From Raillietiella orientalis (lineage: Eukaryota), in assembly GCA_036172245.1 (NCBI GenBank), contig JAYWIR010000091.1, positions 186,001 through 250,000 of the forward strand: DNA of 64,000 nucleotides, written 5' to 3'. Positions 14,049 through 51,730 of this stretch are shown here, piece after piece. A model generated the notes under the pieces. The model was not told where the DNA came from, searched no databases, and saw nothing but the letters and a program-made list of their open reading frames with translations. The translations under genes were made by a program, and so were the position numbers. Each line of letters starts with the position of its first letter. Position 1 is the first letter of the stretch.

Positions 14049-14056
14049 CGGACGTG
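14049..14056 (+). promoter_or_regulatory. CGGACGTG 5'-terminal motif (DPE-like putative internal Pol II promoter element); representative copy
   Basis: Also at 10305-10312 (+) and, on minus, ~29020 (TGGACGTG), ~33833, ~37854, ~43767, ~46146, ~55577; matches DPE consensus RGWYV. Confidence 0.65.
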
Positions 14057-14121
14057 TTTTTCTTCGCTCTCGTCTCCGTGCTTTCATCCGCTTCATCTTG
14101 GCGTCGTACATTTTGACGACG

Positions 14122-19628: not shown

Positions 19629-19911
19629 TCATTGCTCTACCCTCCATAAACTAAATATGTATTTTCTTTTTACACCCGCATCCCCATAGGCTCCGGAACA
19701 TGTTAGGTGCTCATCGTATAAATCCCCGTGAGTACGGAGCCTAACCAAAAACCCGTTACCCTTCGCTCCAGTTTTTGATTTTTGTTTGTTTCCCCTCATT
19801 CCTCCCGCGCTGCGAGCGGTTTGTTTACCAGGCCTGCGTGCCGGTAATTTTTCTATGTTCTCTGTCGTTCTGTTGGTTAAGGACATTGTCCCTGACCAGT
19901 TTATTATTATT

Positions 19912-19941
19912 AATAAACGCCCCGGCGTGACCGGGTGATAA
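19912..19941 (+). terminator. 3'-terminal AATAAA plus CCCGG..CCGGG stem-loop; representative copy
   Basis: Recurs at the end of every 3'-intact element, in several lineages with otherwise dissimilar 3' UTRs. Confidence 0.75.
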
Positions 19942-22900
19942 ATTTCAATGTCCGCCTGCTAACAGGTGAGCCGGAAACACATGTGAACGCGATGAACGGG
20001 TTGTGCGCCACGATGCGTGAGCGCAACTTGTTCGCGTGTGAGAGAGGAATGGTCCGCAGCATCGACCACGTCTTCCTGGACGCTGACCTGTGTTCACGAG
20101 TCGGCAAACGGGGGAGGGTTGCGTCGACGTTGTCGTTCCATTCCCGGTTAATTTTCGAGATGCGGCCTCGCGACAAAGGACCGCCATCCAGGGATTGGCG
20201 TCTGCCGGGGGACTGGACGCGACTCTCAGGTGCGAAGGAAAACCTTCGCGAATACCTGAGAGGCGTCACGCTCCGGAATCTCCAGGACTGGGACCTTTTT
20301 AAAGAATCGGTCCGCGAGTTCTGTGAGAAGTTCCCCCTGGATCGCCTGCCCCCCGGATTCAACAAGGGTGCTCGCAACCATTGGGCCTATTTACAGGCTG
20401 GTAGGTACGCGAGAACCTTTAATGTTCGTCGCCTGGCCGAGTACCGCGCCGGGGCCGAACGCCAAGCCTGGCAATCCGGGTCGGCCAGCTTGCTGGACGA
20501 CCAAGGCCGGGAATGTTCGTCCCCGGCGTCGGTACGGCATCTCGTGCGGAGTTTCTATTCCTCCCTTTACGCCAGGGAGCCCCCGGATCGAAACGCCTCT
20601 CGGCGCTTGCTTCCGGATGGCGCCCCGGCAATAGGGGAGGAGGAGATGAAAAGCCTCGAGGAGCCTTTTACCACCGGCGAAATTCTCGCCGGTATCAAAA
20701 GGCTCAAGAGGCGTTAAGCTCTAGGGGAAGACGGCTTGCCCGCGGAGTTCTTTCAGAGCTTCGCGGAAGAGCTGGCACCCCTGCTGCTTAAGTTGATCAG
20801 GCTGATCCGAGACGAAGGCGATGTTCCCGCCTCGTTTCGGTCAGCCTGAGTGAGGCTCCTTTTGAAAGGGGGAGACCTCAGGGATTTAAAGAACTGGCGT
20901 CCGATCACGATCGTGAATACGGACGGCAAGTTGATAGCAGGGCTATGGGCTTCGCGTCTGGGGCAGGTGGCAGAATCGGTAATTAGCCCGGAGCAGACTA
21001 ATGCTGTTCCCGGGCGAAGTATGGATGCCAACCTCTTCTTCGCAAGCACATGGGTGCACTTGCAGGGAAGAGAAAAGAAAGGGATAGGGAAAGTCGGCAA
21101 CCCCACATTGGGGCCGCAAGCCGGGCTGGGAAGGGACCCCCGGGCGGGGAAGGGGGCCCTAGCGCTCGCAGTCGATCTCCACAAGGCGTTCGACTTTGTA
21201 GACAAGGAACTCCTCTTGGAGCTCCTGGGTCGCATGGGCTTTCCACCCTCCCTGATTTCCTACCTGCGCTCTTGCTGGCGGAATGCGATAATTACGGTCT
21301 CTTTCAGCGGTCACAAGGTGCATGACGTGCCGGTGCGGCGGGGCATTAAGCAGGGAGATAGCCTCAGCCCCCTGCTATTCAGCACCTACTTTGATTTGGT
21401 GCTGAGAGCGTACAGGGTGACTCTAGCCCCATTGCCGAGCTCGTGCCCCAGCACGCCCGCCGTTACAGCGTACGCCGACGATCTTCTGCTCTTGTTGCCA
21501 ATGTCCACCCCGGCAAAGGCGGTCGGAGACTTCTTCGATCTGCTCAGTCGCAGGAACTGACTGCAGGTTAACAAGGCGATGTCGTCGGTTGTGCCAATAG
21601 GAGCGGCGTTGGCAGGGCAGCAGGACTGGGTCCGTGATGGGATCCCCACGGCGAGGTGCTTCAAGTACCTTGGTGTGCCGTTGGGGGACTACTCCCCTGC
21701 GGAAGCGTGGTCCAGCTGCCTCCAAAAAGTCGAGACGGCGATCGGCCCGTTCCTGGAAAGCAAGTTTCACTTGCCGGAACGGGCCGCGGTTTGGAACGCC
21801 TTCGCGGCCCCCATCCTCCGCCCTTTGCTTTTTGTTTGCCCCTTCACCGTGGAATCCAAGAAGAGGACGAAGGACCTCCTCCGTATCGCCCTTTGGGGCA
21901 AGGGGAGGCCCCGAGTCTCACTGAAGGACTTGTGCGCTGCGCGTTGGGACGGCGGTCTTATCCTCCTGACGCTGGAGCGCGTGGAGAAGCAGCTGCGGTG
22001 GCGAACCCTCGCCATCGAAGCGAAGATGTGGAGCACCCCTTGGTGCACTCCGGCCCGCCTTCTGGCCAGGCATGTGTCCCGGTGCGATGGACTCGCGTCT
22101 TTTTTTTCTGAGCCGTGGCCCGAAGATGCAAAGATGCGGCCTACTGCTCGGGCGCATGGCAACATTGGCCAAGGAGAACAGCTGGATGGTTTGCTGCCCA
22201 GCCAACTCCCCCGCCTGGCTGGAGGAGAATATTGGAACGTGGGCAGTAGTTAACCAGAGAAGCCACGAGACGTGGAATCGTCTCCCATGCAGCCCCTACG
22301 CCCGCTGCACGCTGCGAAATCTCCTGGAGAGTCCAGCAAGATGCACGTGGGCAGAGACGACCTGCCTAGCTACGGCGCTGCCCTTCCTCAGGAGGCACTT
22401 CACAGCAGACGGACGCCAAGGTGGCAAGTCTCCTGCTGCATCGAGGGACGCGAAAAATTGATCAGCGGCTGGACAACAGGAGAACTAGCCGACGCCACGA
22501 CCCAGAGCGTCCAGCCGCGAGGATTATTAAGATGGGACGAGCTGCTCGCTATCCCCAGGGATGAGCTGAAGTGGCCCCCGGTGATGAAAGAATCCAGGAT
22601 CCTGCCCCTTAAGTGGCAAGAGTCGGCGTTGCTTCTGTTGCACTGGGGTCTACCCTGCAACGCGCGCCGCTTCCACTGCACGAGGGGAGCTGTGGATCCC
22701 GCGTGTGCCAGGTGCGGGGAGCGGGAGTCGCTTCCCCACCTTATTGTGGATTGTGCTGCCCTCCGACCCCTTTGGGAACGGTTTGGGACGACCCTCGGGC
22801 TACCTACAGGCAGCACACCCAGAGACGTTCTTCGGCCCCTCTTCGTGAAGGACGCACTGCAGCCAGCCGCAGCCATCGCAGCCTTGTGCTGCATCCGAGG

Positions 22901-23283
22901 TATCGTGGCGGCATGGAGCGACGCCAACAACGAAGGAGTGGGTCCACAGGGGAAAGATGTCATCCCGTATGCCCAACGCTTCTTGCGGAGAGCTGCCGGA
23001 TGGCCCCAACTGGGGAATATGCAGACTGACCTCGAGGGCTTCGTTCGACGAATGGGCCCTCCCCACAGCGACCAGTGATCCCTTCCCTGCCCTCCAACTT
23101 CTTTTTGTTTGTTTCTTGTTATTTTTCTCTTTGTCTTATCCCCATCTGCCTTCCCTGTCGGAGAGTGCGACGCCGGGCTGCGTTCCGTTGTCCCGACAGG
23201 TCGCGTGTTTACGGCCGTGGTGGGGCCTCGTACCACGCATATAGAGTTTACAAATAAACGCCCCGGGCGTACCCGGGTGACAA

Positions 23284-23517
23284 CGCCGAATCCCCATTGC
23301 AGACGTTTCACAGGGAACTTTTTGCAGAACTCCCGGACCGAGTCCTTAAATAGATCCCAATACGCGAGTCTCTGGAGGCTGACGCCTCGCAGGAATTCGC
23401 GAAGATGGTCTTTCGCTCCTGACAGGCGCGTCCAGTCCCCTGTCATACGCCAATCATTGGATGGCGGTCCCTTGTCGCGAGGAGGCATTTCGAATAATAA
23501 CCGGAAATGGTCCGTCA
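23284..23517 (-). pseudogene. Short inverted family C ORF2 linker fragment (TDHFR to GFG), host of the C1 3' end
   Basis: Minus strand reads MPPRDKGPPSNDWR...VREFCKKFPVKRLQWGFG. Confidence 0.85.
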
Positions 23518-26299
23518 GCCGGGAACGTTCGTCCCCGTCTGCGGTACGGAATCTCGTGCGGTGTTTTTATTCCTCCCTTTACGCCAAAACACCACACGAA
23601 CAAGACGCCTCGCGACGAATGCTCATGAGTGGTACCGTGGGGATAGGGGAGGAGGAGAGAGAAAGCCTCGATGAGCCTTTCACGACAGGTGAAATTCTCG
23701 CCGTTAACAAAAGGCTCAAGAGGCGTAAGGCGCCAGGGGAGGACGGCTTGCCCGCAGAGTTCTTTCAGAGTTTCGCGGAAGGGCTGGCACCCCTGCTGCT
23801 TCAGCTGACAAGGCTGATCGGAGACGAAGGCCATGTTCCAGCCTCGTTTCGGTCAGCCAGAGTGAGGCTCCTTTCGAAAGGGGAAGACTTTAGAAATTTG
23901 AACGACTGGCGTCCGATCACGATTGTGAACACGGACGCCAAGTTGATTGCCGGGCTGTGGGCTTCGCGATTGGGGCAGGTGTCCAATTCCATAATTAGCC
24001 CGGAGCAGAGTTACGCTGTTGCCGGGCGAAGTATGGAGGACAACCTCTTTTTCGCGAGCACGTAGATGCACGCGCAGCGGAGTAATAAAGAAGGGAAAGG
24101 AAAAATTTTCAACCTTACTTAAGGGCTGCCAGTGGGACAGGGTAGAATCCCTCATGCGGGAAAGGGGGCCTTAGCGATCGCAGTCGACCTCCATAAGGCA
24201 TTCGACTGTGTTGACCAGGAACTCCTATTGGAGCTCCTGGTTCGCATGGGCTTCCCACCCTCCTTGATTACCTACCTGAGCTTTTGCTGGCGGAACGCGA
24301 TAATCTCAATTACTTTCAGTGGAAAAAAGGTGTTAGGCGTGCCAGTGCGGCGGGGCATAAGGCAGGGAGACAGCTTCAGCCCCCTGCTTTTTAGCACCTA
24401 CGCTGAGCTGGTGCTGAGAGCGTACAGGGTGACTTTGGCCCCCTTGCCGAGCTCCTGCCCCGGCACGCCAGCTGTAGCGGCGTATGCCGACGATCTTCTG
24501 CTCCTCTTACCTATTTCCACCCCGGCGAAGGCAGTCGGAGATTTCTTCGAACTGCTTAGCCGTGGGGCGGGATTACAGGTTAACAGGTCGAAGTCGTCAG
24601 GGTTGCCAGTTGGAACGACGTGGGCAGGGCAGCAGGACTGGGTCCGTCTTGGGATCCCCACATTGAGGTGCATCAAGTACCTCGGTGTGCCGTTAGAGGA
24701 CTTCTCCCTTGCGGAAGCGTCGTCCAGCTGCCTCCAAAAAGTCGAGACGGCGATCGGCCCGTTCCTGGAAGGCAAGTTTCACTTGCCGGAACGGGCCGCG
24801 GTTTGGAACGCCTTCGTGGCCCCCATTCTCCGCCCCTTGCTTTTTGTTTGCCCCGCCCCCGTGGAATCAAAAAAGCGGACGAAGGACCTCCTCCGCATAG
24901 CTCTTCGGGGCAAGGGGAGGCGCCGAGTCCCACTGAAGGACTTGTGCGCTCCGCGTCGGGACGGCGGTCTTGGCCTCCTGACACTGGAGCGCGTGGAGAA
25001 GCAGCTGCGGTGGCGAACCCTCGCCATCACAACGAAGATGTGGAGCACCCCTTAATGCACCTTGGCCCGCCTCCTGGCCAGCCGTGTGTCCCGGTGCGAT
25101 GGACTCGCGTCGTTTCTTCTGAGCCGTGGCCGGAAGATGCGAAGATGCGGCCTACTGCTCGGGCGCATGGCAACATTGGCCAAGGAGAACAGCTGGATGG
25201 TTTGCTGCCCCGCCAACTCCCCCGCCTGGCTGGAGGAGAATATTGGAACGTGGGCAGCAGTTAACCAGAGAAGCCACGAGACGTGGAATCGTCTCCCATG
25301 CAGCCCCTACGCCCGCTGCACGCTGCGGAATTTCCTGGAGAGTCCAGGAAGATGCGCGTGTGCAGAGACGACCTGCCTAGCTACGGCGCTCCTCTTCCTG
25401 AGAAGGGCACTTCACAGCAGCCGAACGCCAATGTGGCAAGTCTCCTGCTGCATCCAGGGACGCGAGAAGTTGATCAGCGTCTGGACAACAGGAAAACTGG
25501 CAGACGCCACGACACCGAGCGTCCAGCCGCGAGGTCTAAGAAGATGGGGCGAGCTGCTGGCCATCCCTATGGATGTGCTGAAGTGGCCTCCGTTTCTTCA
25601 GGAATCCAGGATGCTGCTCCTTAAGTGGAAAGACTCGGCGTTGCTGTTGTTGCATTGGGGGTTACCCTGTAATGCACGCCGCTCTCACTGGACTAGAGGA
25701 GTTGTGGATCCTGCTTGTGTCAGGTGCGGAGAAAGGTAATCGCTCTCCCACCTTATTGTGGACTGTGCTGCCCTTCGTCCCCTTTGGGAACGATTTGGGA
25801 CGATCCTCGGTCTTCCTACGGGCAGTTCCCCTACAGACGTTCTTCGGCCCCTCTTCGTGAAGGACGCCCTGCATCCAGTCGCAGCCCTTGCAGGCTTGTG
25901 CTGCGTCCGAAGCATCGTGGCGGCATGGAACGACACCAACAAGGAAGGAGTGGGTCAACCCGTGAGGGATGTCGTCCCATATGCCCAACGCTTCTCTTGG
26001 AGAGCTGCTGAATAACCCCAACTGGGGAATGCACAGATGGACCTCAAGGGCTTCCTTCAACGGATGGGCCCTCCTCTCAGCGAACAGTGATCCCTTCCCT
26101 GCCCCCCAACCTCATTTGTTTGCTTGCCTTCTTGTTTTCATTTTTGTTTTTCCCCATCCCCTTTCGCTGCCGGGGAGTGCCACGCCGGGCTGCGTCCCGG
26201 CGTCCCGGTAGGTCCCGTGGGTAAGGCCGTGAGCGGGGCCTGGTACCGCGATTGTAGAGTTTTTTATAAATAAACGCCCCGGGAGTACCCGGGTGGCAA
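23518..26299 (+). mobile_element. Family C copy 3, 5'-truncated (RT to 3' end)
   Basis: KAPGEDGLP, DLHKAFD, AYADD (~24480); colinear with ~20510-23283; terminus AATAAACGCCCCGGGAGTACCCGGGTG-GCAA. Confidence 0.92.
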
Positions 26300-29033
26300 C
26301 GCCGAATCCCCCGGGCAGACGTTGCACAGGGAACTGTTCGCAGAACTCCCGGACCGAGTCCTTAAATAGGACCCAATTTGCGAGACTCTAGAGGCTGACG
26401 CCTCGCAGGAATTCGCGTAGATGTTCTTTCGCTCCTGACAGGCGCGTCCAGTCCCCTGAAATACACCAATCCCTGGATGGGGGTCTCTTGTCGCGAGGGC
26501 GCATCTTGAATAATAACCGGGAATGTTCCGACAGCGCCGATCCAAGTGTCCCTCGTTTTCCGACCCGTGTGCACAGGTCTTCGTCGAGGAAGACGTGGTC
26601 CACGCTGCTGACCATCCCGCATATTTCTGTCAACAAGTTGCGCGCGCGCATGGCGGCGCACAACTCGTTGATCGCGTTACCCTGTGCTCCATGCTGATCT
26701 GAGAGCAGACGGTCGTTGAAATGCCTTGCTATCAGATGCGCCTTTCGCACGTCCGCGTCCACCATCCATTCGCGCTTCAAGGTTTCCAGAAAGCGTTGCG
26801 CTGCTGGTATCCCTGTTTACAGCTAGGAGCGTACACATTGGTGACGATGAGTTCGATTGAATCGAACCATCTGAGAATCAGTTGGCCGATCCGTCCGTCG
26901 TCCCCAAAGCGCACGCCCTTTACGGCCGCGTTAATGGCTGGCTTTAGAAAGAACGCGACCCCACAAGTGTTGCGGGCGCCGCATCGCCAGTACAACCGCC
27001 CTCTTGCGACCGTTTCGTTCTCCTGGGAGTCTTTTGCGGTGATCACGTGGATCTCCTGCAAAAGCACCAGGTCGAAATCTCGCAAGGTGGCGTCTGTATC
27101 TCGTCTGTTTCCGTCGTCGCGCAGCCCATTAACATTCCAACTGGCCGCGCGGATCCGACGGAGACATGCGAGTCCAGGTGTTATTCCTAAGAACCTGGCG
27201 GTGGTGCTCCCGCCACCTTTTGGGGCGGGTCGCTGGACGGGGTTGGCGTCTTGCTAACCAACTCCCCATCCTTCTTTCGTGCCGACGTCTCCGGCTGCCC
27301 GTGCGAAGGGGGTGTTGTTCGTACCTGTTGGCCCACATCCATTGGTGCGGGTGTTTCAGGTTCGGCGGTTTCAGAGGCCATTTCTGACCCCTGGTTACCC
27401 TCCTCCATTGGAGTCGCCTCCTCGTGGGCTTCCGCACGTGAGTGATGCTCGACTTGGGCTCCCACACTGCCATCCACTGGTTCTTCCACCAATGCATCCC
27501 CCTCGCGCGGAGGCGGAATGCACCTTCGGGGTTTCTGGGATTTTCGCCCCGCTTTCCTTGGTGGTGCTTCCGCAGAGAACGATGCACTTCCGGCCTCCCG
27601 GTCCGACTCACCTGCGGAAGCCTCTTTAGCCGCTGCATGCCTACGCAACCCCTTTCGCAAAAGTTTCTCGCGTTCGGCAAGCGTTGCCGCAAGCTCCTCG
27701 GCGGCCTTCTCGGAAGCTGAGTCCTTGGTTTCGGCGATTTGGTCGTCCGGCTGACCCTCTTCGCAAGCAGGGGTTGGGTTTTCGCGCGCATCCGTCGCGG
27801 CGGGAAAATCGATCGAAGCCGTATCGCCTCCGGTGGTGTCGGCGGGAACGTCAATGCGCTCCAGCGTAACCGTGCATTCTCGGAGAGTTTTTACACCCGA
27901 CACGGATTGATCTTTTGTTCCGGCCGCCGTCTTCTCTCCTTTCTTCGGTACATGCTTGTCTATTTTCTCTTTTTTGGCTTTGACTAGCTGCCAGCCCTGT
28001 TCTCCCTCTGCGGTTTCAAGAAGATTTTTCTCCGATGCCGCGCTTGGAGCTTGGGTTATTGGAAGCTTTTCTCGGCCAGTTTCACGGTTTTCCAATTTTT
28101 CGTTCCCCGCGCGTTTCCCTTGCGCCTTTTTGGCGGCCGAGGAAATTGGGGTGGGGCGTTTAGGGTACACGCAACGGACGTGTCCCTTCTCCCCGCACAA
28201 GTAGGATACGATGTTTGGACACCTCTTTCGGATGTGTCCGACCGCATCGCAGTAGCCGCTATACCGTGGCTTGCCCGCATATTAGAGGTCTACCGGTTCT
28301 CCCGCGACCTCAAGTTTGTGGAGTAGCTTCGCTTCGTTTTTTAGGGTTACGCGTGCCGCGGCGAGGCCCCCGAAGTGGCGTCCGTAGCCCTCAAAGATTG
28401 TGGGCTTCGGCCACAGCGCGTGTACGTCCCCGTACTTACTTAATTCTGCTTTTACGGCAGTGCGCGTCATGCGCTTGGATATTCCTGTCAAGTGGACCAC
28501 TACCGAGTGGTCCATTGACACCGGGAAGATCTTACGGCAGTCCATGATCAGCGGGGTATTTATAAGGCGATCGGCCAGGCTAATGGTCTTGCACACCAGC
28601 TCAACCCGCTGCGCCCCGCTGAGCACGCACAGACCTTCCAGATCTTCCTCAAGGACATTAGCATTTTGAAGCGCTCTGCTGAAAGAGCGCGCCAAGTTCC
28701 CTTTAAACAAAGGGCCTACCATGCATACAAGGGATGGCTCGTATTAAGAGGCCCGATAGGCGGCTTCCTCGGCCATGGCCTCCGCACTGGGGGCGACGAC
28801 CATTTCACTCCAAGTCTTCGCCGGCTGCGAAGACGTTTCAGGGACTATTGCCCACATAGCTGTAGGTCTTGTAGTAGGACTTGCCTTCCCCACAACTACA
28901 TCTATCGCGGTGTCCTCTGGCACGGCTGCCAACGGACACCGACGACCCACTCTTTACACCTGACTACACTGAAAACTCCGGCTGCTTCCCAGACAAGCGC
29001 TGGCGGAGCGACCAAAAAACACGTCCACTCACA
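26300..29033 (-). mobile_element. Family C copy C': 5' end, ORF1 and APE up to the GFG site
   Basis: 5' TGTGAGTGGACGTG; ORF1 PEDTA...WSEMVVAPSAEAMAE...; APE QEIH, NVYAP, VDH; ends LPGGFG. Confidence 0.9.
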
Positions 29034-29046
29034 CCAGGTTTCGGCG

Positions 29047-31834: not shown

Positions 31835-33850
31835 ATCTCCTGCGCTTGTTCTGCAGAGACCACATGGATCTCCTGCCGCAGCGCAACGTCGAACGATCCT
31901 AGAATGGAGGCCATGTCTCGTCTCCTGCCGGCGTCTGTCATGCCGTTCACGTTCCAAACGGCGATGCGCAGACGACGGCGGGAGGAGATTCCCGGCATTA
32001 CTGCCGGGAAGACGACGGTGTGGGGGAACCCGCCTCTTCCGAGGCGGGTGAGATGACCATTAGGGTTTCAGCCTCCTCAGGCACCTTGGGTACCTTTCCG
32101 GCTCCAATCCCCTCCATCTCCTCCGTGTCAGTGCGTGGTGGTCTCTCTTGTGACGATTCCCGGGATTCTCCCACGCTCATGGCACCCTCGCAGTCGGAAG
32201 TGCTCTCCACGACTTCGACCTGGAGAGGGGATTTCCAGTGTTTGCTGGACTTCCTTCCAGCCTTCCGGCGGGGTGCCGCGGAGATGGAAACTTGGTTTCC
32301 GGTCTGCGCTTCGGGGTCGGAAGTTACCGACTCCTCGGTGGAGGCCGAACGCCTCACTGCCTGTTTGCCAGCCTTGGAGGGGTCTGGCTGCAACGCTGCA
32401 GGCAGCTTCTCCGCCGCACGCTCGAAGGCGGCGTCATCGATCACGGTCTCGATGACGGACTCTTCCGCCGGTTCCATCCCCACGCTGTTGACATTTTCAA
32501 CAGTGGGTTGCTCGTCGGTAGCAGCGATTTCTACCTTGCGGCGTTCGGCGGGGACGCGTTCCAGGACGACGCTGCATTCTTTTAAATTCTCGCTAACCTG
32601 CTGTTTTTTATTTTGGTAGGCGAGCTTTTTTTCGATTCGTCGTTCTTTCTTCGACTTTTTTTTTTTTTTCGCTGACTTCTTGCCACTCCAACACCTGACC
32701 GCTTTTGTCAATCTTTTCGGCATTCGTTGCCGGGGTGTCGGCTGAGGCCTGGACCACGAGAGTGGGTGGCACAGCTTGAGCGGCAGCCTTCGCCGTCAGT
32801 TTTTTCTGAAGCAGCCGCGCGCGTTTTTTTAGGTTCCTCGCGGAAACCACGCGCACAGCGGATTGTGGACACACTTCCTTCGTGTGGCCCATTGTCCTGC
32901 ATACCAGGCACTGTACGTCGGGGTACCTCCTTTTGACGTGTCCCGACGTGTTGCAGAAGCCACAGTATTTGGGCTTCCCCACGTATCAGAGGTCGACGCT
33001 TTCTCCAACGACCACCAGTTTGTGGGGAAGTGTAGAGCTTTCCCGAACGGTTACACGGGCAGCCGTGAGTCCGCACTGAGCTATGGTATAGTCCTGGAAA
33101 GGACTAGGCTTGGTCCATACTGCATGGACCGTGCCTTCTTTTTTCAACGCGGCGCTTAACTGTTCTTTCCGCATCCGCGCGGTAACTCCTAAAAGGTGGA
33201 CCACCATACTGTGGTCCGCCGTAACGGGAAGAAGCCTGCGTGTCCCCATTACCACGGGGGTTTTAAGCAGACGTTGGGCCAGATCTGTATGTTTGCAGAT
33301 CACCTCTACGTACTGCCCCCCGCTACGAATGGTCATAGCGCAGAGCTCCTCTTCTTTAACATCGAGAGCGCGCATCCCCTTCGAAAATGCGCGCGCACAC
33401 TCAGCAGAATACAAATTTCCTACCTTGTAGAATAGTGATGGGTTATACGCCTCTTCCACATAGGCAGATAATTCTGCCGCGGCTGCAGGCGATGGCGCCG
33501 ACACGACGGCGCTCCACGCCCGCGCTGCAGCAGGGACCGGTTTTGTGGGGGCGGACGCCCTCACCTCCTTCGCCACTCAAGGCGACGTTGCCGCCGCCTC
33601 CTGGCACTCCACCTTCTCTAGAGGCGACGTTGCCGCCGCCACGTGGCACTCCACCTTCTCTAGAGGCGACGTTGCCGCCGCCACGTGGCACTCCATTTCT
33701 TCAGGAGGCGACGTTGCCACTGCCCTCTGACACGTAGTGGTGGTCGTGTCAGGCATTGCTGCCTGATCGACCACCTCAACACACGAAGCCTACACCTAGG
33801 GACGGTTCCCGGCACGAGGAGCACCGAGGAAACACGTCCGCTCTAGCCGA
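31835..33850 (-). mobile_element. Family A copy 2: 5' end, ORF1 (33756-31998) and APE start
   Basis: 5' TCGGCTAGAGCGGACGTG; CGFCNTSGH knuckle; TAATG then MPGISSRRRLRIAVWNVNG...QEIH. Confidence 0.92.
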
Positions 33851-36003
33851 CGTAAAGCTTTCGACTGCGTCGAACAGGAGCTCCTTCTTTAGCTAATGGA
33901 ACGCTTGGGATTTCCGCCCGTCTTCCTGGGCTACCTGCGTTCTTGCTGGCGCTTCGCGTTCATCAATATTAATTTTAGCGGCCGGCACGTGTTCGACGTG
34001 CCGCTTCGTCGTGGCATCCGGCAGGGTGACAGCCTCAGGCCCCTGCTCTTCAGCATCTACTTTGAATTGGTGCTGAGAGCATACAGGGAGACTTTGGCAA
34101 CCCTGCCGAGCTCGTGTCCCGGCACGCCAGCCGTTTCGGCCTATGCCGACGATCTTGTGCTCCTGCTTCCCGGGTCCACCCCGGCATCGGCGCTCGAGGA
34201 TTTCTGCGTGTTGCTATACCGTGGGATAGGCCTCCAGGTGAACAGGACGAAGTAGTCGTTGCTTTTCACCGACTCGACGAGGGCCAGACGATCGGAATGG
34301 ATCCGCATGGGGATCCCCACGTGCAGGTGCATCAAGTACCTTGGCGTTCCGTTGGGGGACTTCTGCTCTGCAGAAGCCTGGTCCGACCGTCTACAAAAGG
34401 TGGAGCTGGCGATCGGCCCGTTCCGGGACGGCAAGTTCCACTTGCAGGAACAAGCCACGGTATGGAACGCTTTCGCGGCCCCTCTCCTTCGCCCCCTACT
34501 TTCTGTGTGCCCTACCCTTTATCGAATTAGGACACGAGCTAGGGGCCTTATACGGAAAGCCCTCTGGGGCAACCGTAAGCCTCGCGTCCGGCTCAAAGAC
34601 TTGTGCGCTTCACGCATGGACGGTGGACTTGGTCTCCTGACGTTGGAGCGCATGGAGCGACAGCTCCAATTTAGAAAACTTGCCCTTGTGTCAAAGTTTT
34701 GGACAGCACCCTGGTGTGCTCCAGCAAGACTCCTTGCTCACAGGGCAACCGGCTGCTTCGGATTGACTTCAATCCTGGTAGCCAACGAACGCAGGCTGAA
34801 CCATTGTGGTTATCAGCTGCGGGATTTGGTTGATCTGATGAGAGACAACCCTTGGATCTCCTGCATCCCAGCGGACTGGACTACCTGGCTTCAGGAATCC
34901 GTATCCGCATGGGCGAAGATCAATGGCACAAGCAATGAGGTCTTCTCCTAGCTCCGCAGAGGGAGGCACGCTGGTCAGCCACTCCAGGAGATCGTTTCCA
35001 TCCCACGGAAACTTCTGTAAGCTTCCTTCACCCCCCTTGCCCCTGTGCTGCCTTCCCTCAGGGAAGTTCGGGACAGCCACCAACAGGCATCGTGGGAAGT
35101 GTCCTGCCTAATCGGAGGCACTAAAAAATCACGGAAGGCGTGGACGCCGAGGGAACTAGAGGACGCTAGTACCCCGAGTGTCCCGCAGAACGGACTTTTA
35201 CGCTAAGGCGCGCTGCTCAGTACACCCCCGGAGGAGGTGAAGTGGCCCCCAGCGTCATGCGACAACGGCACCCTTCCCCTGCAGTGGCAGGAGACGGCGT
35301 TGCTTCTGCTTCACTGGGGACTTTTAAGCAGAGCACGCCTGTCTCTTCGGACATCAAGGAATGTGGATGCTAGTTGTGCAGAGTGCGGAAAAAGGGAGAG
35401 CTTCCCTTACTTGATTCTGGAGTGTGTTGCCCTCCACGAAATTTGGGAGACACTCTCGTCGATCCTCAACATTCCGGAGGGTCAACTGAAAAATCTATTC
35501 AGACGCCTTCTAACGCGAGACGGCTTGCCAGCCTCCGGGAGCGTAGCACTGCTTTGCTGCATACGCGGTATCCTGGAGAAGTGGACCGCGTCTAGGAGAG
35601 GAAGGACCAGCCGGAATGCCATCCACTGGGCAGCGATCTCCTTGGAGAAAGTGTGCCGTTGGCGCTGACTTCAAAATCATTTGCCAGCACTTGTTGGCAT
35701 CCGAAACCGGATGCAAAGGCCGCTTCACGGCGCACCGTGATCCCCCCCTCCCTCCCCCTTTCCAAAAAACTTTGACTTCAGGACGTTTTTCTTTTTTTGT
35801 TTTTGTTTTCTTCAATTTTTCCCGTCCCGGCGACAGTGAAAGACCTTATCGACCTCCGGGTCGGTAAGGACAAGTGCTACTGAACTTCTGAACTAAACCT
35901 CTGACGTCGTAAAAAAAAAAATCTTATCAACATATACTTTGTTACAAAATCCTGTAATTTCAAAATTTTAGCAATAAAAGCCTTGTCTTACCAGGGTGAA
36001 AAA
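33851..36003 (+). mobile_element. Family D copy 2: 3' half from RT KAFD to terminus
   Basis: RKAFDCVEQELL, GIRQGDSL, AYADDL, CAECGKRESFPYLILEC; terminus AATAAAAGCCTTGTCTTACCAGGGTG-AAAAA. Confidence 0.92.
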
Positions 36004-37867
36004 CCCCGTCGGGTTTCGTGGAGAATTCGCGTGGCTTTGCGGCTCGCGATGCCTGGCTGCCTACTTTTGATCGGCGCGCACACGCTTTCGAACAAGTTGT
36101 CCTCGTCTCGGTGATCGGAACGGAATCCATTTCGGAATCCGACAGGCGCATGTTCGATCGGGATTCGGCCTTCCGGGAAGTAGTGACAGGTTCCGCTGGA
36201 CTTACAGCTGTCCTGTTGTCTTTTTCCGCCTCCAGAGCAACGCTTTTGGTGACGGCTGCTTTCCCGGCGCGCGAGTTTTCAGCGTGCTCACGCGCAGTTG
36301 CACGAGGGACCTTTGCTGAAGTCTTGTTTACTTCATTACGGTTCCTCACTTCGCGTGGCGAAGTAAATGGAAATTGTCCTCCATTACCATCATTGAAGCC
36401 ATCCGCGTCTATAAACGGGAGCAGTTTCGATGGCTCCGAAACGCTCGTCATGGACGCTGCCTTCGGAACTGCTTTTAATTCCTTCGTTGGCATGGAATCC
36501 GCGTCAGTCGAGACCTTGCTCTCCGACTGCGACGGCGTGAGATTTTTCTCCGCTTTTGCGGTGTTGGATCAAGACGCGGATTTTTTTTGCCGACTTTCGA
36601 AGTCGACACGGCTCAACCCTTCTTACCCGATTTGGGCTTCTCAGCCACTGCAGGAGGTGAAGGAATGGATCTGACGGTACTGGAAGTGTCCTTACCGCCG
36701 TTGTCCATTGACATCCCCGCCGGTTGCTCGAACTCCGAAAGAGTGGGACGTGCTTGGGAAGGACAGCTATTGCGCCTAGGGGGACTTACTATTGCCCCGG
36801 ATTCCCCGCACCCTTTCTTTTGCGGCTCCCCTGCCGCGAGAGGGGGCGCGCAGGGCTTCGCTTGCGATTTTTCCGGCTGCTTTGGGGCGACGTTCCGCCT
36901 TGCGTGTTTTCGGAATTTCTGCCGTGGGGTCTCCAGGTTTTTCGCAGATTTTTTCTTTTTATGCGAGCTTTGTTTTTAAAGATGGAGCTCCGCGGCTGCC
37001 TTTTTTCGCAAAAGATCCGGGCAATTTTTCAATTGATGCCCGGATAGTTTGCAATAACGGCATTTTCCAGAGGGGCATTTATCCAAACAATGCCCCTCCT
37101 TCCAGCATTGCTCGCACGTTCTTACTTTGCCCACGAACCACAGGTGGACGACCGTGTCTTTCATCTGTAGTTTGGTGGGCAGCAGACGGCAGTCCGGCAT
37201 TGTAAGCCGGACTCCAGCGACTCCGCTGTGTATGGACCGGAAGTCCTTGCGGTTGCTACGCACCCTCCACAGCGCATGGACCGTGGCGAATTTCGCCAAC
37301 GCGTTCCGAATATCAATATCGGAGATTTCCGACTCAATGTCGAAAATCTCCACCACAAATGAGTCGTCCATGGCGGCCGGGAAGACCTTCTGGCTACGGA
37401 TCGACAACCGGGTGCGCAGCAAGCGTTGCGCAAGTGCAGCGTCTTTGCAACGCACCTTGAAATAGCCCATGTCTTTTACGGGAATAATGGCGAGAAGGTC
37501 CTCCTCCCGCTCGCCAACACGGGTCAGTTCATCGTTGAACTGATTCCCGTCGCGCGCAGAAAGAAAACCACTCACCTTATATCGGAGAGCAGGTCTATAG
37601 CCTTGGGCTACGTATGCCCGCAACTCCGACTCGTCGAGTGGTTTCCCTTTGACGGCGGCTGTGGCAGCAACGTCAGCAAAACTCCTCTCCATTGGCGAGA
37701 AAGACGAAGTGGGGGCGGTCGTCGGTTCCGCGATTGCAGATCCGGATGCTGTTCCTCCAACTTCAGTAGCTTCAAGTTAAGTCGACATCGTCGTCAAAAT
37801 GTACGACGCCAAGATGGAGCGGATGAAAGAACGAAGACGAGAGCGAAGAACAACACGTCCGCACTCG
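36004..37867 (-). mobile_element. Family B copy 3: 5' end and most of ORF1, cut by D2
   Basis: 5' CGAGTGCGGACGTG; ORF 36976..37692 with CEQCWKEGHCLDKC and CRYCKLSGHQLKNC. Confidence 0.93.
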
Positions 37868-37875
37868 ATTGAAAT

Positions 37876-40800
37876 TTATCACCAGGTCACGCCCGGCCTT
37901 TTATTAATAATAATAAACTGGTCAGGGACAATGTCCCCAACCAAGAGAACGACAGAGAACATAGAAAAATGACCGGCACGCAGGCCTGGTAAACAAACCG
38001 CTCGCAGCGTGGGGGGAATGAGGGGAAACAAACAAAAATCAAAAACTGGAGCGAAGGGTAACGGGTTTTTGGTTAGGCTCCGTACTCACGGGGATTTATA
38101 CGATGAGCACCTAAAATGTTCCGGAGCCTATAGGGACGCGGGTGTAAAAAGAAAATACAAATTTAGTATATGGAGGGTAGGGCAATGATCAACGGGCTGG
38201 CCGCTGCTGAGGGTGTGTAAACCGGCGGTGTATTGCGGCGATTTTCCGTTTTGTCTCCTCTGTCAAATGAGGCCATCTAGCGGATGCTCTAATGTAGAAG
38301 GATGCTTTGCTGATTACCTCTTAATGCTGTCCGTTGATTACCAGCGCCTGGCGGACGGAAACTATCGCGCGTATGCAACCGATGGTTGCAATCCTTGCGC
38401 TTAGTGAAAGCCCGCTCGGCGTTAAGAATCGTCGCAGCAAGTCTCTTGCGGTGTCCACGGGATGCAATAGTGCTGTTGCCAGCCTCCGCAACAGTCCTTG
38501 TAGGACACCGCAGTCCAGAAGTAGGTGCGGAATCGACTCCGTCGATCCGCACCGAACGCAGTTCGGAGACGCAAGTCCCCCGGAGTCACGATGCCAACGC
38601 TCGTTGCACTGAAAACCCCATTGAAAGAAAAGCAGCACGTCTTGTTTCCAAGCAAGGGAGAGCAGCGAACTGTCAATACACTGTGGAGGGACTACAAGTT
38701 CTTCGGGGGTGACAGCAAATTCTTCTGCCCACCGGAGGAGTCCCTTTGCAGTAACACGAGGAGTGGCGGCGTCCGCCAACTCACTCGTCTTCCAGGCGCC
38801 AAGGATTTTGGTTTTTCCCGCTATCGTGCAGGAAACCTCCCACCTCGCCGGTTGGTAACTGTCGTTTCTTGCCCTGAGGGCAGACAGCGCTGCGGCAAGA
38901 GGCGTGGCAGCCAGGGTAGAAAACTTCACCTCGTTTTGCAGTACTTCTTCCAAGGATCGTGGAAAAAATTGACGCAGGGAGCGAAGATCTTCAGAGCGTA
39001 TTCCTGGAACGCCGCCCAGGATTCAACAGACTTCTGCCTCCAAGTTTTAAAGTTCATTGGGCGGCAGGAGATCCACGAGTGAGCTTCCAGAAGTGCGGTC
39101 AACTGCCGCAATGGAAACCCGAAACCCCGCTTCCTGTATTGAGTGCCCGGCAAAAGCGAGAGAAATCCTCCGCTGCCGGCGCATCTCCGCAGTAGAATGC
39201 GGGCTGGCACACACAGGAGGGACGTCCATAGCTGGGCACACAGTGCCAGCAGTCGGAACTGCACTTGCAGTCCGATTCGCTCCAATGTCAAGATACCCAA
39301 ACCAGCATCCCGACGCGGAGCTAACAAATCTTTAAGGCGGATCCTGGATCTCGCCGGACCCCAGATAGCGTTCCTGCGCAGGCGTTTATCCCGCTGTTTT
39401 GCCGCATAGGGGGGGTCCAAAACAAAAAACAGGGGACGGAGGAGGGGGGCAACAAAGGTGTTCCAAATAGTCGCCCGTTCCTGCAAGGTAAACTTGCCGT
39501 TAAAGAACGGGCTGATGGCTAACTCAGCTTTCTGAAGACAGTCCGCCCACGCTTCCGCTGCGCCGAAAGCGCCCAACGGAACGCCAAGGTACTTAAAGTA
39601 CCCGCCCGTGGGGATTCCCAGGCGGATCCAGTCGGACTGCCCCTCCCACGACGTACCCACAGGAACTACCACGCTCTTCTCTCTGTGCACGCTCACGCCC
39701 GCTCCCCGACGTATCAGGTCGAAGAAATCCTCGACACTGGACGGCGGGGTGGACATGGGGAGCAGAAGAAGCAGGTCATCAGCGTAGGCGGCCAAGGCAG
39801 GCGTTCCCGGGCAGGAGCTTGGCAAGTGAGACAGCGTCAGCCTGTATGCTCTTAGCACCAACTCAAAGAAGATGCTGAAGAGCAACGGGCTTAAGCTGTC
39901 GCCCTGTCGGATGTCCCTACGACCGGGAATACCATACACGCGGCAGCCGCTAATAGTGATGCAAGTTAGCGCGTGGCGCCAGCACGCGCGCAAATACAGC
40001 AGGAGTTGCGCCTGGGACCCAGGGCGTTCCATAAGCTCCAAAAGCAGCTTCTGGTTTACGCAGTCGAACAACTTGTGGAGATCGACCGCGACCGCCAAGG
40101 CACCTGGCGTTCCCTCCTGCCGTCGGCGCCTGTTCTTTTTGCCTGCGGCAGTGACTTTCGCAGCAGCCTGGCTTTGCTGCGCCACAACTTTCTGCAGCTG
40201 CATCCATGTACGCGCGAAAAGGATGTTCGCCTCCATGGATCGTCCCGGAACCGCGTAGGTTTGTTCCGGGCTCACCACAGATTCCGCGATACTTCCTAAC
40301 CGCGCGACCCACAGCTTGGAAAACAACTTGACGTCCGAGTTCACCAAGGTGATCGGACGCCAGTTGTTAAGTTGGCGCAAGTCTCCGCCTTTCGGCAGGA
40401 GACGCACCTTCGCTGAGCGGAAGGAATCGAGGACATTCCCGGATTCACTCATCAGCGTCGCGAGTTTCAGCATCAAGGGAATGAGCTCCACTGCAAAGCA
40501 CTGATAAAACTCTGCAGGGAGCCCATCCTCGCCTGGTGCCTTTCGTCTCTTCAGCCCAGCGATGGCGGACAAAAATTCATCCGCCGTGAAGGGCTCGTTG
40601 AGACGTTCGCGTTCCTCCTCGCCGACAACACGAGCATCCTGAGACAGGAGTATCTCAGAAAGAATATCCTGCGTCGGGGATTCCGCGTAGAGCGAGAAGT
40701 AGTAGCGTCTCACAATGCGGCGTACTTCCGCTGGGGCCGAACATTCCTGGCCCTTGTCGTCCAACAGGCATGCTGCTCCGGACTGCCAGACCTGGCGCTC

Positions 40801-43780
40801 GGCCCTCGCCTTGTACTCTGCGAGACGCCCGACATCCGCGCGTCTCGAAAACGTGCGGGCCTGCAGAAAGTCTCTACTGTTGGCCACACCCTCTCCAAAA
40901 CCGCGTGGAAGCCGGTGCAAGGGGAATTGGCAGCAGAACTCGCGGACAGATCTTTTGAGATCGTCCCAGTGCGCAAGTTCTTGAATGGCAAAGCCTCGGA
41001 GGTATCCACGTAGATGCTCCGCAGCCACCGGTTGGCTAAGCCAATCCGTCTGCATCCTTCAGTTTTGCAACGGAGGTACCCTGCCTGGCGGAAGGATCTC
41101 AAACTCCAACCTGTGGTGGTCAGAAAGCCTAGTCAACAATCTGCCTCTCCTCCCCACACGCGAATGCAGGTTTTCATCGAGGAAAACGTGATCGAGCGAT
41201 CTTTCCATTCCAGGTTCGCTGACCATCAAGTTGGCGGCGTGCACGGACGCGCACATCTTGATGGGCAGCGCGCGCTCCCTCGGGCGGCTCCAATCGTCGG
41301 AGAGCAGTCGGACGTTGAAGTCCCCAGCGACGAGGTGCCCCACTTGGAAACCGGAGTTGTTGAGCCAGTGGCTCTGCACCTCACCAAAGAAGGCTACTCT
41401 TTCTTGGAATTAGCGAGAGCCACTCGGCGCGTAGACGTTCGTAACGACGAGATCGATGGACTCGGACCACTTGATGACAAGCTGGCCTTTCCGTCCGTCG
41501 TCATCGAAACGAATACTACGCACCGCTTCCGCCATTTTTCCTCTTACGAGGAAGGCGAAGCCGCACGTGTGTGCGCCGTCGCACCGCCAATGTAGCGTTC
41601 CGCCTGCGCGCTCCTCGATTTCGACTCTCTGCTCATCGGAGATTACGTGAATCTCCTGCAGGAGCGCGCGGTCGAAGGGGTGCAGGGCGTTGGCTACTAA
41701 TCGCCTCTTCTCATCGTTCTGTAGTCCGTTCACGTTCCAACACGTTACGGACAGACGACGAGAAGACGGGATTCCCCGCATTACTGCTGGGAAGGTGGCG
41801 GCTTTTTGCTCGCTTTTTCCGGCGAGCAGACGGCGAGCAGCACGACTGGCTGGAGGGCACGGTCGCCACCGTCCTCTGTCGTGCTGCAAGCATGTAATGC
41901 CTCCACGCCAGGCTTAACCCCGTCATGTTTCGTGGAGACTTCGCGTGGCCTCGCGGCTAGCGTTGCCTAGCTGCCTACTTTTGATCGGCGCGCACACGCT
42001 TTCGAACGAGTTGTCCTCGTCTCGGTGATCGGAACGGCATCCATTTCGGAGTCCGACCGGCGCATGTTCGATCGGGTTTCCGCCTTCCACGAAGTAGTGA
42101 CAGGTTCTGCTGGATTGACAGCTGTCCTGTTGTCTTTTTCCGTCTCCAGAGCATCGCTTTTGGTGACGGCTGCTTTCCCGGCGAGCGCGTTTTCAGCGTG
42201 CTCACGCGCAGTTGCACGAGGGACCTTTGCTGAAGTCTTCTTTACTTCATTACGTTTCCTCACTTCGCGTGATGCCGTAAATGGAGATTGTGCTCCATTG
42301 CCATCTTTCAAGCCATCCGTGTCTTTAAACGGGAGCAGTTTCGATGGCTCCGACACGCTCGTCATGGACGCTGCCTTCGGAAGGGCTTTCAATCCCTTCG
42401 TTGGCATGACATCCGCGCTAGTCGAGAGCTTGCTCTCCGACTGCGACGGCGTGAGATTTTTTTCCGCTTTCGCGGAGTTGGATCGCGACGGGGATTTTTT
42501 TTTGCCGACTTTCAAAGTCGACACGGCACAACCCTTCTTACTCGATTTGGGCTTCTCAGCCACTGCAGGAGGTGAAGGAATGGATCTGACTGTACTGGAA
42601 GTGTCCTTACCGCCGTTTTCCATTGACGTCTTCGCCGGTTGTTCGAACTCCGAAAGAGCCGGGCGTGCTTGGGAAGGACAGCTATTGCGCCTAGGGGGAC
42701 TTACCATTGCCCCGGATTCACCGCACCCTTTCTTTTGCGGCTCCCCTGCCGCGAGAGGGGGGCGCAGGGCTTCGCGTGCGAGGTTTCCTGCTGCTTTGGG
42801 GCGACATTCCGCTTCGCGTTTTTACCGAATTTCTGCCGTGGGGTCTCCAGGTTTTTCGCAGATTTTTTCTTTTTATCCGCGCTTTGTTTTTTAAAATGTA
42901 GCTCCGCGGCTGCTTTTTTTCGCAAAAGATCCGGGCAATTTTTCAATTGGTGCCCGGATAGTTTGCAATAACGGCATTTTCCAGAGGGGCATTTATCCAA
43001 ACAATGCCCCTCCTTCCCGCATTGCTCGCACGTTCTTACTTTGCCCAGGAACCACAGGTGAACAACCGTGTCTTTCACCTGTAGTTTGGTGGGCAGCAGA
43101 CGGCGGTCAGGCATTGTAAGCCGGACTCCAGCGACTCCGCTGTGTATGGACGGGAAGTCCTTGAGGTTCGTTCGCACCAACCACAGCGCATGGACCGTGG
43201 CGAATTTCGCTAACGCGTTCAGAATATCAATATCGGAGACTTCCGACTCGAAGTCGGAAATCTCCGCCACAAATGAGTCGTCCATGGCGGTCGGGAAGAC
43301 CTTCTGTCCACGGATCGACAACGGGGTGCGCAGCAAGCGTTGCACAAGTGCAGCGTCTTTGCAACGCACCTTAAAATAGCCCATGTCTTTTACGGGAATA
43401 ATGGCGAGAAGGTCCTCCTCTTGCACGCCAACACGGGTCACTTCATCGTTAACTGATTTCCGTCGCGCGCAGAAAGAAAACCACTCACCTTATATCGGAG
43501 AGCAGGTCTATAGCTTTGGGCTACGTATGCCCGCAACTCCGACTCGTCAAGTGGTGTCCCTTTGACGGCTGCTGTGGCAGCAACGTCAGCAAAACTCCTC
43601 TCCATTGGCGAGAAAGACGAAGTGGAGTCGGCCGTAGGTTCCGCGATTGCAGATCCGGATGCTGTTCCTCCAACTTCAGTAGCTTCAAGTTGGGTCGACA
43701 TCGTCGTAAAAATGTACGACGCCAAGATGTAGCGGATGAAAGCACGGAGACGAGAGCGAAGAAAAACACGTCCGCACTCG
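37876..43780 (-). mobile_element. Family B copy 2, full length (~5.9 kb), flanked by ATTTCAAT on both sides
   Basis: ATTGAAAT at 43781-43788 and 37868-37875; ORF1 43701-41781, ORF2 41781-38189. Confidence 0.96.
38926..41055 (-). pseudogene. Longest open RT reading frame in the window (709 aa, part of B2 ORF2)
   Basis: KAPGEDGLP, NWRPITLVNSD, QGDSLSP, AYADD, KYLGV; APE upstream broken by stops, frameshift downstream. Confidence 0.95.
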
Positions 43781-46164
43781 ATTGAAATCTCCCGCTATCA
43801 GGTGATTTTTTCGCACATTGGTATCTGCCAGCCAGTCGCGCTTCAGGGTTTCCAGCAGCCTGGTGCGGTCGCGGTAACCCTGTTTGCCGCTGGGGCCATA
43901 CACGTTTGTGACGATTAGGTCGTTCGAGTCGGACCAGCTGAGAATCAGCTGACCGATCCGACCGTCGTCATCAAACCGCACGCCCTTTACGGCAGCGTCG
44001 ATGGCCGGCTTCACGAAAAACGCGACCCCGCAGGTGTTGCGGGGGCGGCATCGCCAATACAGCCGACCCCCCGCGAACTTCTCGATCTCCTAGGCGTCTG
44101 CCGCGGTGATCACGTGGATCTCCTGCAGCAGCGCCAGGTCGAGCTGACGCAGGGTGTCGGCCGTATGTCGCCTGTTGCCGTCGTCGCGCATCCCGTTGAC
44201 GTTCCAACAGGCCGCGCGAATCCGACGGCGACTGGCGAGCCCAGGTGTTAGTCCTGGGAAAACGGCGATGCGGCGTCCGCCACCTGCTGGGGCGGGACAC
44301 TAGGTGGAGGGGGAGGGGAGACAGGTACTGAAGGCACCTGTTCCTCCTCCTGCATCGGTGCCGGCGCGTCGGGCGGATCACCTGCAGGTGGAGTCGCGCC
44401 TACCTGTTCGCCTTCCTCCATGGGTTCGGGCTGCTCAGGTTTCGCGACTGCAGGGAGGACTTAACCCCCCTGCTCTCTCTCCTCCATGGGGGTGGCCGAC
44501 TCGACGGCTTCCGGGCGTGGGTATTGCCCCTCCGGGATTCCCACGCTGCCGCTTCCTTCCGGTTTCTCCTCCTCGCTGGTGGAGGGGAGGCGCCTCCTGG
44601 GTTTCTGGGACTTGCGTCCCGACTTCCTGGGGGGTGCCTCCGAGGAGGATGATCTGCTTCCGGCCCCCAGGTCGCACTCACCTGCGGGGGCCTTCTTTGT
44701 CGGAGCCGACCTGCGTACGCCCTTGCGCGACGGGGTTTCGAGCTCGGCGAGCGTTGCTGCGAGCTCCTCCGCCGCTTTGTCGAAGGCCGCGTCTTCGCCA
44801 GCGGCGACCGTTGCCGCGGGCTGCCCCGCGACTTTATCGAGCGCGGCGTCCTGGCTGTCGGCGCGCTAGTCTCGCGTCTCACCCTCTAAACGTAGATTGG
44901 GCACGTCCACGCGAGTATTCATCCCGTCTGCATCAGCTGTTCCGTGAACATTGCCGCGGGCGGACTCGGCAGGAACGGCTAAGCGTTCCAGTGCCACCGA
45001 GCATTCGTAGAGCTGCTTTTTTTTGAAAGCGGCGCAACTTTTTTCTTGTTGCCGGCAGTTTTCTTCTCCGACATTTCTTCTGGCATTAATTTCTTTTTTG
45101 TTTCTTTTTTGTCCTGAACCAGCTGCCAACCCTCCTCCATTTCCGCGTTCACATGAGCTATTTGCTCCGACGTCTGTACGGGAGGAAGGGAGGCTGGCAG
45201 TTGGGAACGGCCATTTTCGCTAGGTGGTCTTTCTACCAGCTTTCCACGTTTTCCCTGCGCCTTTTTGGCAGCAGGGGGCACCGGGGTGGGGCGCTTGGGG
45301 CTCACGCGTGAACGTGACCCTTTTTGCCGCATTTGACACACAATGTTAGGGTACCTTTCTCGTAGATGCCCTACTGCATTGCAGTAGCCACAAAATTGGC
45401 GTTTCCCCACGTACCAGAGGTCCACCGCTTCTTGGCAGACCTCCAGCTTGTGGGGAAGCGCACCACTCTCTTTTACTGTGATACGCGCCGCAGCTTGACC
45501 TCCGAAAAGGCTATTGTAGCCTTGGAAAATCGTGGACTTCGGCCACAACGCGTGCACTTCTCCGTGCTTTTGTAGCTGTTTTCGAACCTCTGACCTTGTC
45601 ATACGACTGGAGATCCCAGTGAGATGGACCACCACCGAGCGGTCCATCGTTATCGGCAAGATCTTCCGACCATCAACGATCAGCGGGTCGGTGATCAGAT
45701 GTCGGGCCAAGGTGATATCCTTGCATACCACCTTGACCCGCTGCCCGCCGCTGAGGACGCAGAGGCCGTCGACATCTTTTTCAAAAATATTGGCGTTCTG
45801 CAGCGCCTTCGTAAAGGCTCGTGCAGTTCGCCCATCGAAAAGGTTGCCTACCTTGTAGACGAGCGAGGGATTATACCCCGCTTTCTTGTAGGCTTCCATC
45901 TCGGCCATGGCTTTCACGCTAGGCGCGGCCACCATGGCGCTCCATGACCTCGGCGTCGCCGGGGACGATTCCGGGGCGGATGCCCCTGATCCAGTAGGCT
46001 GTGGGGACGAACAAGCCTCCATCACGCCTACATCCATCGCGGTGTCCTCTGGCAACGCTGCCATCGGACATTGACGATGTGCACGCACAAATCACTCAAT
46101 AAGAAAAAACACTCGCTTTGCCACGCAGGCGGAGCGCAGGAAAAGCACGTCCGCTCTCCACAGC
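43781..46164 (-). mobile_element. Family C copy 2: 5' end, ORF1 (46064-44248) and APE up to GDFN
   Basis: 5' CTGTGGAGAGCGGACGTG; MAALPEDTAMDVG...CGYCNAVGH; APE WNVNG, QEIH, NVYGP, LIAGDFN. Confidence 0.92.
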
Positions 46165-51715: not shown

Positions 51716-51730
51716 CGCAGGTTTGCCGCA

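Follow-up and report, generated by a model that had tools for sequence, protein, structure and literature searches.

The Drosophila long interspersed nuclear elements (LINEs) Doc, F, G, I and jockey are described as carrying a common downstream box, A/G-G-A/T-C-G-T-G/T-C/T, at about +29 to +36. In published descriptions of the extended downstream core promoter element (DPE), the motif is given as RGWYV(T) at +28 to +32(33) or as RGWCGTG, and CGG at +27 to +29 constitutes the 3′ part of the motif ten element (MTE); the spacing between the DPE and the A+1 of the initiator is reported to be strict to one nucleotide, and the fly DPE is reported to need an initiator. The silkworm site-specific LINEs SART1 and TRAS1 are said, in the paper on L1Tc, to hold a DPE, as do jockey, Doc, G, I and F. 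Here we analyse a box of this type, GGACGTG, at the 5′ ends of five LINE families found in a 64,000-nt stretch of DNA from Raillietiella orientalis (NCBI GenBank assembly GCA_036172245.1, contig JAYWIR010000091.1, positions 186,001 to 250,000 of the forward strand), referred to below as the window. As in jockey, Doc, F, G and I, the box is part of the 5′ leader and the LINE carrying it is of the endonuclease type, with two open reading frames (ORFs) and CCHC motifs in ORF1. In the Drosophila elements, however, it lies at about +29 to +36 from an initiator made of the element's own first bases, whereas here it lies 7–12 nt from the element boundary.

Other described elements resemble these LINEs in part. 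Pr77, the internal promoter of L1Tc in Trypanosoma cruzi, is reported to depend on an essential downstream box, CGTG, at +25 to +28; it likewise has a downstream CGTG, but it starts at the element's own +1 and belongs to an unrelated organism and transcription machinery. R2 RNAs are reported to keep up to 36 nt of 28S sequence at their 5′ ends, and annealing of this sequence at a new target has been postulated to give uniform junctions. Transcription of SLACS in Trypanosoma brucei reportedly begins ahead of the element, at position +1 of the spliced-leader gene that it interrupts. SLACS is a site-specific retroposon that starts in its target, as proposed here, but it takes over a complete promoter from a transcribed gene, whereas the target in the window is an antisense coding strand with no promoter of its own, to which the element would bring the downstream half. 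CZAR and CRE are related to SLACS.

The first 56 kb of the window consist of nested, related LINE retrotransposons, each family occupying a fixed position within the coding regions of other LINE copies. Across this nest (positions 1–56040, G+C 53–63% in 2-kb steps), Pfam searches found RVT_1 and Exo_endo_phos domains in many open frames, and a tblastn map with the ORFs of one copy, B2, as query gave about 80 LINE fragments on both strands. ORF1 encodes two CCHC knuckles, and ORF2 terminates with a CX2CX8HX4C motif. Full-length copies with an intact 5′ end fall into families A, B, C, D and H, and their 5′ junctions are listed in the table below.

The window contains 12 matches to YGGACGTG (expected, 4.26), a count reached in none of 100 shuffles. 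Eight of the 12 matches occupy homologous positions at the start of full-length copies from all five families, and the remaining four (26748−, 28175+, 44902− and 51472−) fall in internal or antisense coding sequence. When the eight 5′ regions were aligned, mean column identity was 56% and GGACGTG was the sole invariant block. With one representative per family (n = 5), 21 of 208 columns were invariant and the 7-column box was the only run longer than two; pairwise identity of the five family 5′ ends ranged from 0.37 to 0.65. The nest shows no CpG depletion (observed/expected = 1.01), so retention of the two CpGs in the box is unremarkable, and the invariance across families is the remarkable part. 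Two further full-length copies, D2 and F, have decayed boxes (GGACTTT and GCACGCG, respectively). The initial annotation, which placed (C/T)GGACGTG in all eight clearly intact 5′ ends, is therefore correct for those eight, and the proportion becomes 8 of 10 when every full-length end is counted.

Each of the eight intact 5′ ends has a downstream box that matches RGWYV(T) and RGWCGTG, as in the fly-type DPE. The form CGGACGTG satisfies the fly LINE consensus, RGWYVT and the MTE-derived CGG, and agrees with the extended DPE at every position. A LINE inherits only what its RNA holds, and transcription must consequently start at or upstream of the element boundary, so that the box is downstream of the start by necessity. 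We regard it as very probable that GGACGTG functions as a downstream promoter element; in the reading favoured here it would be a box of the DPE/MTE type within a short 5′ untranslated leader.

We set the element boundaries by target-site duplications, namely ATTTCAAT for B1, TCGAAAGC(C/T)(T)TACG for the A-family copy X4, behind which A1 lies, CGCCGAAACCTGG for C and CGCCGAATCCCC for D. The A-family duplication was derived from the X4/A1 tandem alone, and the 3′ ends of A2, F, D and H could not be paired. Measured from the boundary to the Y of the box, the leader is 10 nt in family A (8 nt if a second possible boundary is used), 6 nt in both B and C, and 11 nt in D; in H, where the boundary could be placed only to within 6 nt of the box, it is at most 6 nt. 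These values agree with the earlier placement of the box 7–12 nt inside the 5′ end.

Insertion sites are specific to the nucleotide. Family A is inserted antisense in the K-A-F-D codons of three host LINE copies: the 5′-truncated X4 and A1 in host E1, A2 in E2 and the truncated A3 in E3. X4 is flanked in E1 by TCGAAAGCCTACG and TCGAAAGCTTTACG, and A1 follows it directly. Family B occupies the G-D-F-N codons of the host endonuclease in the sense direction, in two hosts and one tandem; families C and D are antisense in R-G-F-G codons at four places, and H lies, likewise antisense, close to the D-W-D codons of a host copy truncated by satellite DNA. Independent insertions at the same nucleotide with target-site duplication (A, B and C/D) identify these as site-specific LINEs of the endonuclease type. 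Three of the eight intact 5′ ends (A1, B3 and C) are in tandem, and the 5′ junctions of family B are uniform in all three copies. The B 3′ end together with its duplication (19925–19949, CCGGGTGATAAATTTCAAT) resembles the B target (14020–14042, CCGGGAGATTTCAAT), a likeness that might explain the head-to-tail pile-up of B copies.

Table. The 5′ junctions of full-length LINE copies and associated target features (window coordinates; box position is the lower coordinate of YGGACGTG, or the range of the decayed box).
Feature	Positions	Strand	Box position	Sequence	Context
A2 box	33833–33840	−	33833	CGGACGTG	DPE/MTE-like
A2 leader	33841–33850	−		TCGGCTAGAG (A1 has TTAGCTAGAG)	Boundary taken from the X4/A1 duplication
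A2 target	33851–33864	−		TCGAAAGCTTTACG	Antisense of host E2 reverse-transcriptase R-K-A-F codons; matches the A-family duplication
A2 initiator-like sequence	33863–33868	−		GCAGTC	Host DNA, antisense of D-C codons; A at 33866
A1 5′ junction	10281–10312	+	10305	Duplication TCGAAAGCTTTACG, leader TTAGCTAGAG, box CGGACGTG	Tandem, directly behind the X4 3′ end (10250–10280)
Host E1 site	7565–7581	+		GCAGTC, then TCGAAAGCCTACG	Host antisense strand, then the 5′ copy of the X4 duplication
B1 5′ junction	14035–14056	+	14049	Duplication ATTTCAAT, leader CGAGTG, box CGGACGTG	Duplication copies at 14035–14042 and 19942–19949
B2 5′ junction	43767–43788	−	43767	ATTTCAAT, CGAGTG, CGGACGTG	Identical to the B1 junction
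B3 5′ junction	37854–37875	−	37854	ATTTCAAT, CGAGTG, CGGACGTG	Head-to-tail behind the B2 3′ end, single ATTTCAAT between
C 5′ junction	29020–29046	−	29020	Duplication CGCCGAAACCTGG, leader TGTGAG, box TGGACGTG	Tandem, behind the 3′ end of the upstream copy
D 5′ junction	46146–46176	−	46146	Target CGCCGAATCCCC, leader GCTGTGGAGAG, box CGGACGTG	Target is antisense of host R-G-F-G codons
H 5′ junction	55577–55612	−	55577	Box CGGACGTG (55577–55584), leader of at most 6 nt, CCAATCT (55606–55612)	CCAATCT in host antisense; A at 55610
F 5′ end	51701–51730	−	51701–51707	Decayed box GCACGCG, preceded by 23 nt TGCGGCAAACCTGCGCCGGTGCC	Joined to A3 ORF1, non-target DNA
D2 5′ end	11735–11749	+		CATTTGGAGGACTTT, decayed box GGACTTT 8 nt inside	Joined to A1 ORF1, non-target DNA

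If TFIID reads the box as it does in flies, the start would be 27 nt upstream of the first G of GGACGTG and 15–20 nt outside the mapped boundary, a point that belongs to target DNA or, where copies stand in tandem, to the tail of the preceding copy. We examined this spacing at all eight intact junctions. At A2 the position reads cgacgc[A]gtcga, with the A of GCAGTC 2 nt beyond the duplication and a G at +24, and at H it reads gtccc[A]atctt, the first A of CCAATCT. At the other six junctions (B1, B2, B3, C, D and A1) there is no initiator-like sequence at 27 nt: B1 and B2 read cacc[T]gata, C reads ccgg[G]tgg, D reads gccc[C]ttcgc, B3 reads gcgtg[A]cctgg within the B2 tail, and A1 reads gtgaa[A]atcga within the 3′ tail of the upstream tandem copy X4. 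Initiator-like sequence is therefore present at the exact spacing in two of eight junctions, or at two of the four distinct target sites. Counting back in the same way, the initial annotation had arrived at the same residues in A2 and H, had noted that +1 would then fall outside the element and had found no clean initiator at the B and C junctions; this geometry was reproduced, and D can be added to the junctions that lack one.

Initiators were scored with three definitions, namely TCAKTY matched in five or six of its six positions with A+1, YYANWYY and BBCABW, for which the joint background in the nest is 0.0175 per position. In a scan of offsets 5–60, offset 27 was the only one at which two families scored. 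The probability of at least two matches at one pre-set offset is 0.008 for eight junctions, 0.003 for five families and about 0.002 for four target sites (binomial). Two further observations concern the target sites themselves. Host E1 carries the same GCAGTC at its A-family site, and in the host relative that was aligned to the H flank the corresponding position reads GACTGGGAC; judging from that alignment, its antisense is CCAGTC, at the same spacing as the CCAATCT of H.

Taken together, the box and the spacing suggest that transcription may start in the flank, a reading that we consider quite possible and hold tentatively. Several results weigh against it. The hypothesis was drawn from the same junctions on which it was tested, A2 and H being the source of the idea, and six of the eight junctions fail at the required position. 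The A family is also inserted at the E3 site, which reads GCTGTC, so the initiator-like sequence is not required for targeting. Among the tandem junctions A1, B3 and C, none has an initiator at 27 nt and the tail positions share no common motif. In the head-to-tail arrays of HeT-A at Drosophila telomeres, a copy's promoter is supplied by the 3′ end of the one before it; head-to-tail arrays are found here too, at the three tandem 5′ ends noted above, but the 27-nt position hits different tail sites in A1, B3 and C. The initial annotation had proposed a split promoter completed only at the correct site. The match of the box to the DPE and the initiator-like sequences at the exact spacing in A2 and H are in keeping with that proposal; B, C, D and the tandem junctions are not, and without an initiator in B, C and D the split promoter is not general for these families as stated.

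The junctions that lack an initiator at 27 nt bear equally on a second explanation, in which these LINEs have a complete internal promoter. Transcription would then start at the boundary or within a few nucleotides of it; the box, at about +8 to +19, would serve as a start-proximal module, or as a binding site for a transcription factor that positions the start, instead of a DPE at +28, and the initiators of A and H would be by-products of the codons that the elements recognise. The six junctions favour this explanation, as does offset 10, at which each of the three B copies scores through a TCAATC that spans the boundary of duplication and element (14040–14045, 43778–43783 and 37865–37870). 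A site close to the start has precedents. In human L1, a YY1 site near +13 to +21 reportedly fixes the start site. The Drosophila F element reportedly bears one more such box, placed closer to where its transcription starts, which also counts against a flank start, since a proximal box within a complete internal promoter is then not unheard of. On the other side, the bases at the boundaries differ between families and form no common initiator, so that the jockey/Doc/I arrangement, with an initiator in the element's own first bases and the box near +28, is not found here. Leaders of 6 to 11 nt would place the box at a different position in each family, and a match at seven of seven positions to a position-bound motif would have to be coincidence. 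On this evidence a complete internal promoter is possible, if somewhat doubtful, and slightly less probable than a start in the flank.

Full-length copies outside their usual targets provide a view of the 5′ end in which target-derived sequence would be distinguishable from the flank. Copy F joins A3 ORF1 at 51730/51731, the point at which A3 homology to A1 and A2 stops, and carries the 23-nt extension TGCGGCAAACCTGCGCCGGTGCC upstream of its decayed box. The outer portion of this extension, taken with the adjoining GAA, aligns to the tail and duplication of the C tandem junction (GAAT-GCGGCAAACCTG vs GAATCGCCG-AAACCTG), with a score that was reached by 19 of 2000 shuffles; the GAA is shared with A3 and can be assigned to either sequence. 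The extension looks like flank sequence that was carried on the RNA, beginning 23–26 nt upstream of the box and near the predicted 27, and a complete internal promoter leaves it unexplained. D2 gives the opposite result. It has only 8 nt ahead of GGAC, its 5′ end coincides with that of D to about 1 nt, and it is joined to non-target DNA with no target-like extension, which is the usual family boundary expected of an internal promoter. The 3′ end of D2 (11735–23283) is on the usual CGCCGAATCCCC site of the family in an antisense host, and its 5′ end is joined to A1 ORF1 in the same orientation; these mismatched flanks point to deletion or recombination at insertion. F thus speaks for a start in the flank and D2 against it, and both junctions may have been shaped by later rearrangement.

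We next consider explanations in which the box or the 5′ end has no role in initiation. The box could act on the RNA or cDNA, for example as a binding site for an element protein at the RNA 5′ end, or as a signal in 5′ joining or in the synthesis of the second strand. In R2, the 5′ part of the RNA reportedly governs binding by the element's protein. Invariance of the box at the extreme 5′ end in five families is in line with such a role, as are the site specificity of the elements and the uniform 5′ junctions in three of three B copies. RNAalifold, however, gave no consensus structure for the 5′ regions, and a hairpin drawn by hand around the box (GAGYG/CGCTC) was rejected, with 0 pairs changed on both sides and 68 of 500 shuffles pairing as well. 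An exact identity with a known promoter motif would also have to be coincidental, and we consider a role in RNA or cDNA improbable.

Alternatively, the elements could be transcribed by read-through from far upstream, from the host or neighbouring elements, with the 5′ end made by RNA processing, for instance by ribozyme self-cleavage. Such processing is reported for R2 and for other site-specific LINEs, and dense nests make read-through likely. Families A, C, D and H, however, are antisense to their hosts, and the host's own transcription cannot supply their RNA. No Rfam family reached its gathering score in the whole 64 kb, and the 5′ ends of B2 and A2 gave no ribozyme family even with E values allowed up to 10, a search in which divergent ribozymes could be missed. 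In these searches the elements showed no sign of the feature that defines the R2 type, a ribozyme at the 5′ end that is HDV-like (hepatitis delta virus-like) or otherwise self-cleaving, and a ribozyme-processed 5′ end was rejected for want of an Rfam match. Read-through with processing is very improbable as the source of these 5′ ends.

Two other candidate promoter arrangements were rejected. A second CGTG lies 22–27 nt downstream of the first in A1, A2, B1, B2, D and F; B3 has CGTT at this position, and C, H and D2 have no counterpart. As the real DPE of a promoter that starts at the boundary it was discarded, in that the start would fall inside the leader of B and D and make the leader uninheritable. 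An outward-facing DPE promoter was also discarded, the antisense of the box, CACGTCCG, showing no RGWYV match by eye. About 100 nt past the box, A, C, D, H and F share a semi-conserved block, GGCAGC(A/G)(A/T)TGCC(T/A)GA (e.g., 33700–33720, minus strand), which surrounds the likely ORF1 start codon and is the second most conserved stretch of the leader.

The mechanism that would follow from a flank start combines these elements as follows. The RNA would begin with target-derived sequence, which after insertion on target would be indistinguishable from the target itself, and which could guide precise 5′ joining as postulated for R2. R2 has target sequence at the RNA 5′ end and uniform 5′ joining, the same consequence that this model predicts here; R2, however, is co-transcribed with rRNA and carries an HDV-like ribozyme, whereas here, with no ribozyme found, the 5′ end would come from initiation. 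In its fullest form, the model holds that this guild of LINEs has shed the initiator half of its promoter. The element would keep the TFIID contact (CGG + GGACGT), and the antisense codons of the target would supply the start (D-C in reverse transcriptase for A, W-D for H). Only on-target copies would be well transcribed and hence favoured, and RNAs with 15–20 nt of target would guide seamless 5′ joining. As a complete scheme, built on sequence comparisons, this is rather unlikely. Literature searches aimed at an initiator in the target combined with a DPE in the element found no such case, which is not proof of absence.

Searches outside the window returned few relatives. Among 8000 scored candidates from a collection of 5.8 billion proteins, the reverse-transcriptase frame of B2 (710 aa, 38929–41058, minus strand) had six relatives at E ≤ 1e-10, the best with 56% identity and none of them named. 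Exact scans of metagenome contigs with the B and A 5′-end sequences gave 0 loci each. Within the nest, 20506–23519 and 23518–26535 form a tandem pair of units of about 3 kb that are 85% identical, each made up of the 3′ 2.8 kb of a D-family copy and about 230 bp of antisense host flank; the pair represents either a duplicated element with its flank or two insertions in parallel. A satellite (56069–63981; units of 275–278 bp, G+C about 40%, CpG observed/expected 0.68) abuts the LINE nest and fills what remains of the window. The array switches orientation near 59570, and the host copy of H ends at about 56041.

If transcription starts at the boundary, GGACGTG would amount to a conserved LINE promoter box of the ordinary kind, unusual in its distance. 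If it starts in the target, mobile element and landing site would each contribute part of the core promoter, expression would depend on correct integration, and the maintenance of exact 5′ junctions without a ribozyme would be explained.

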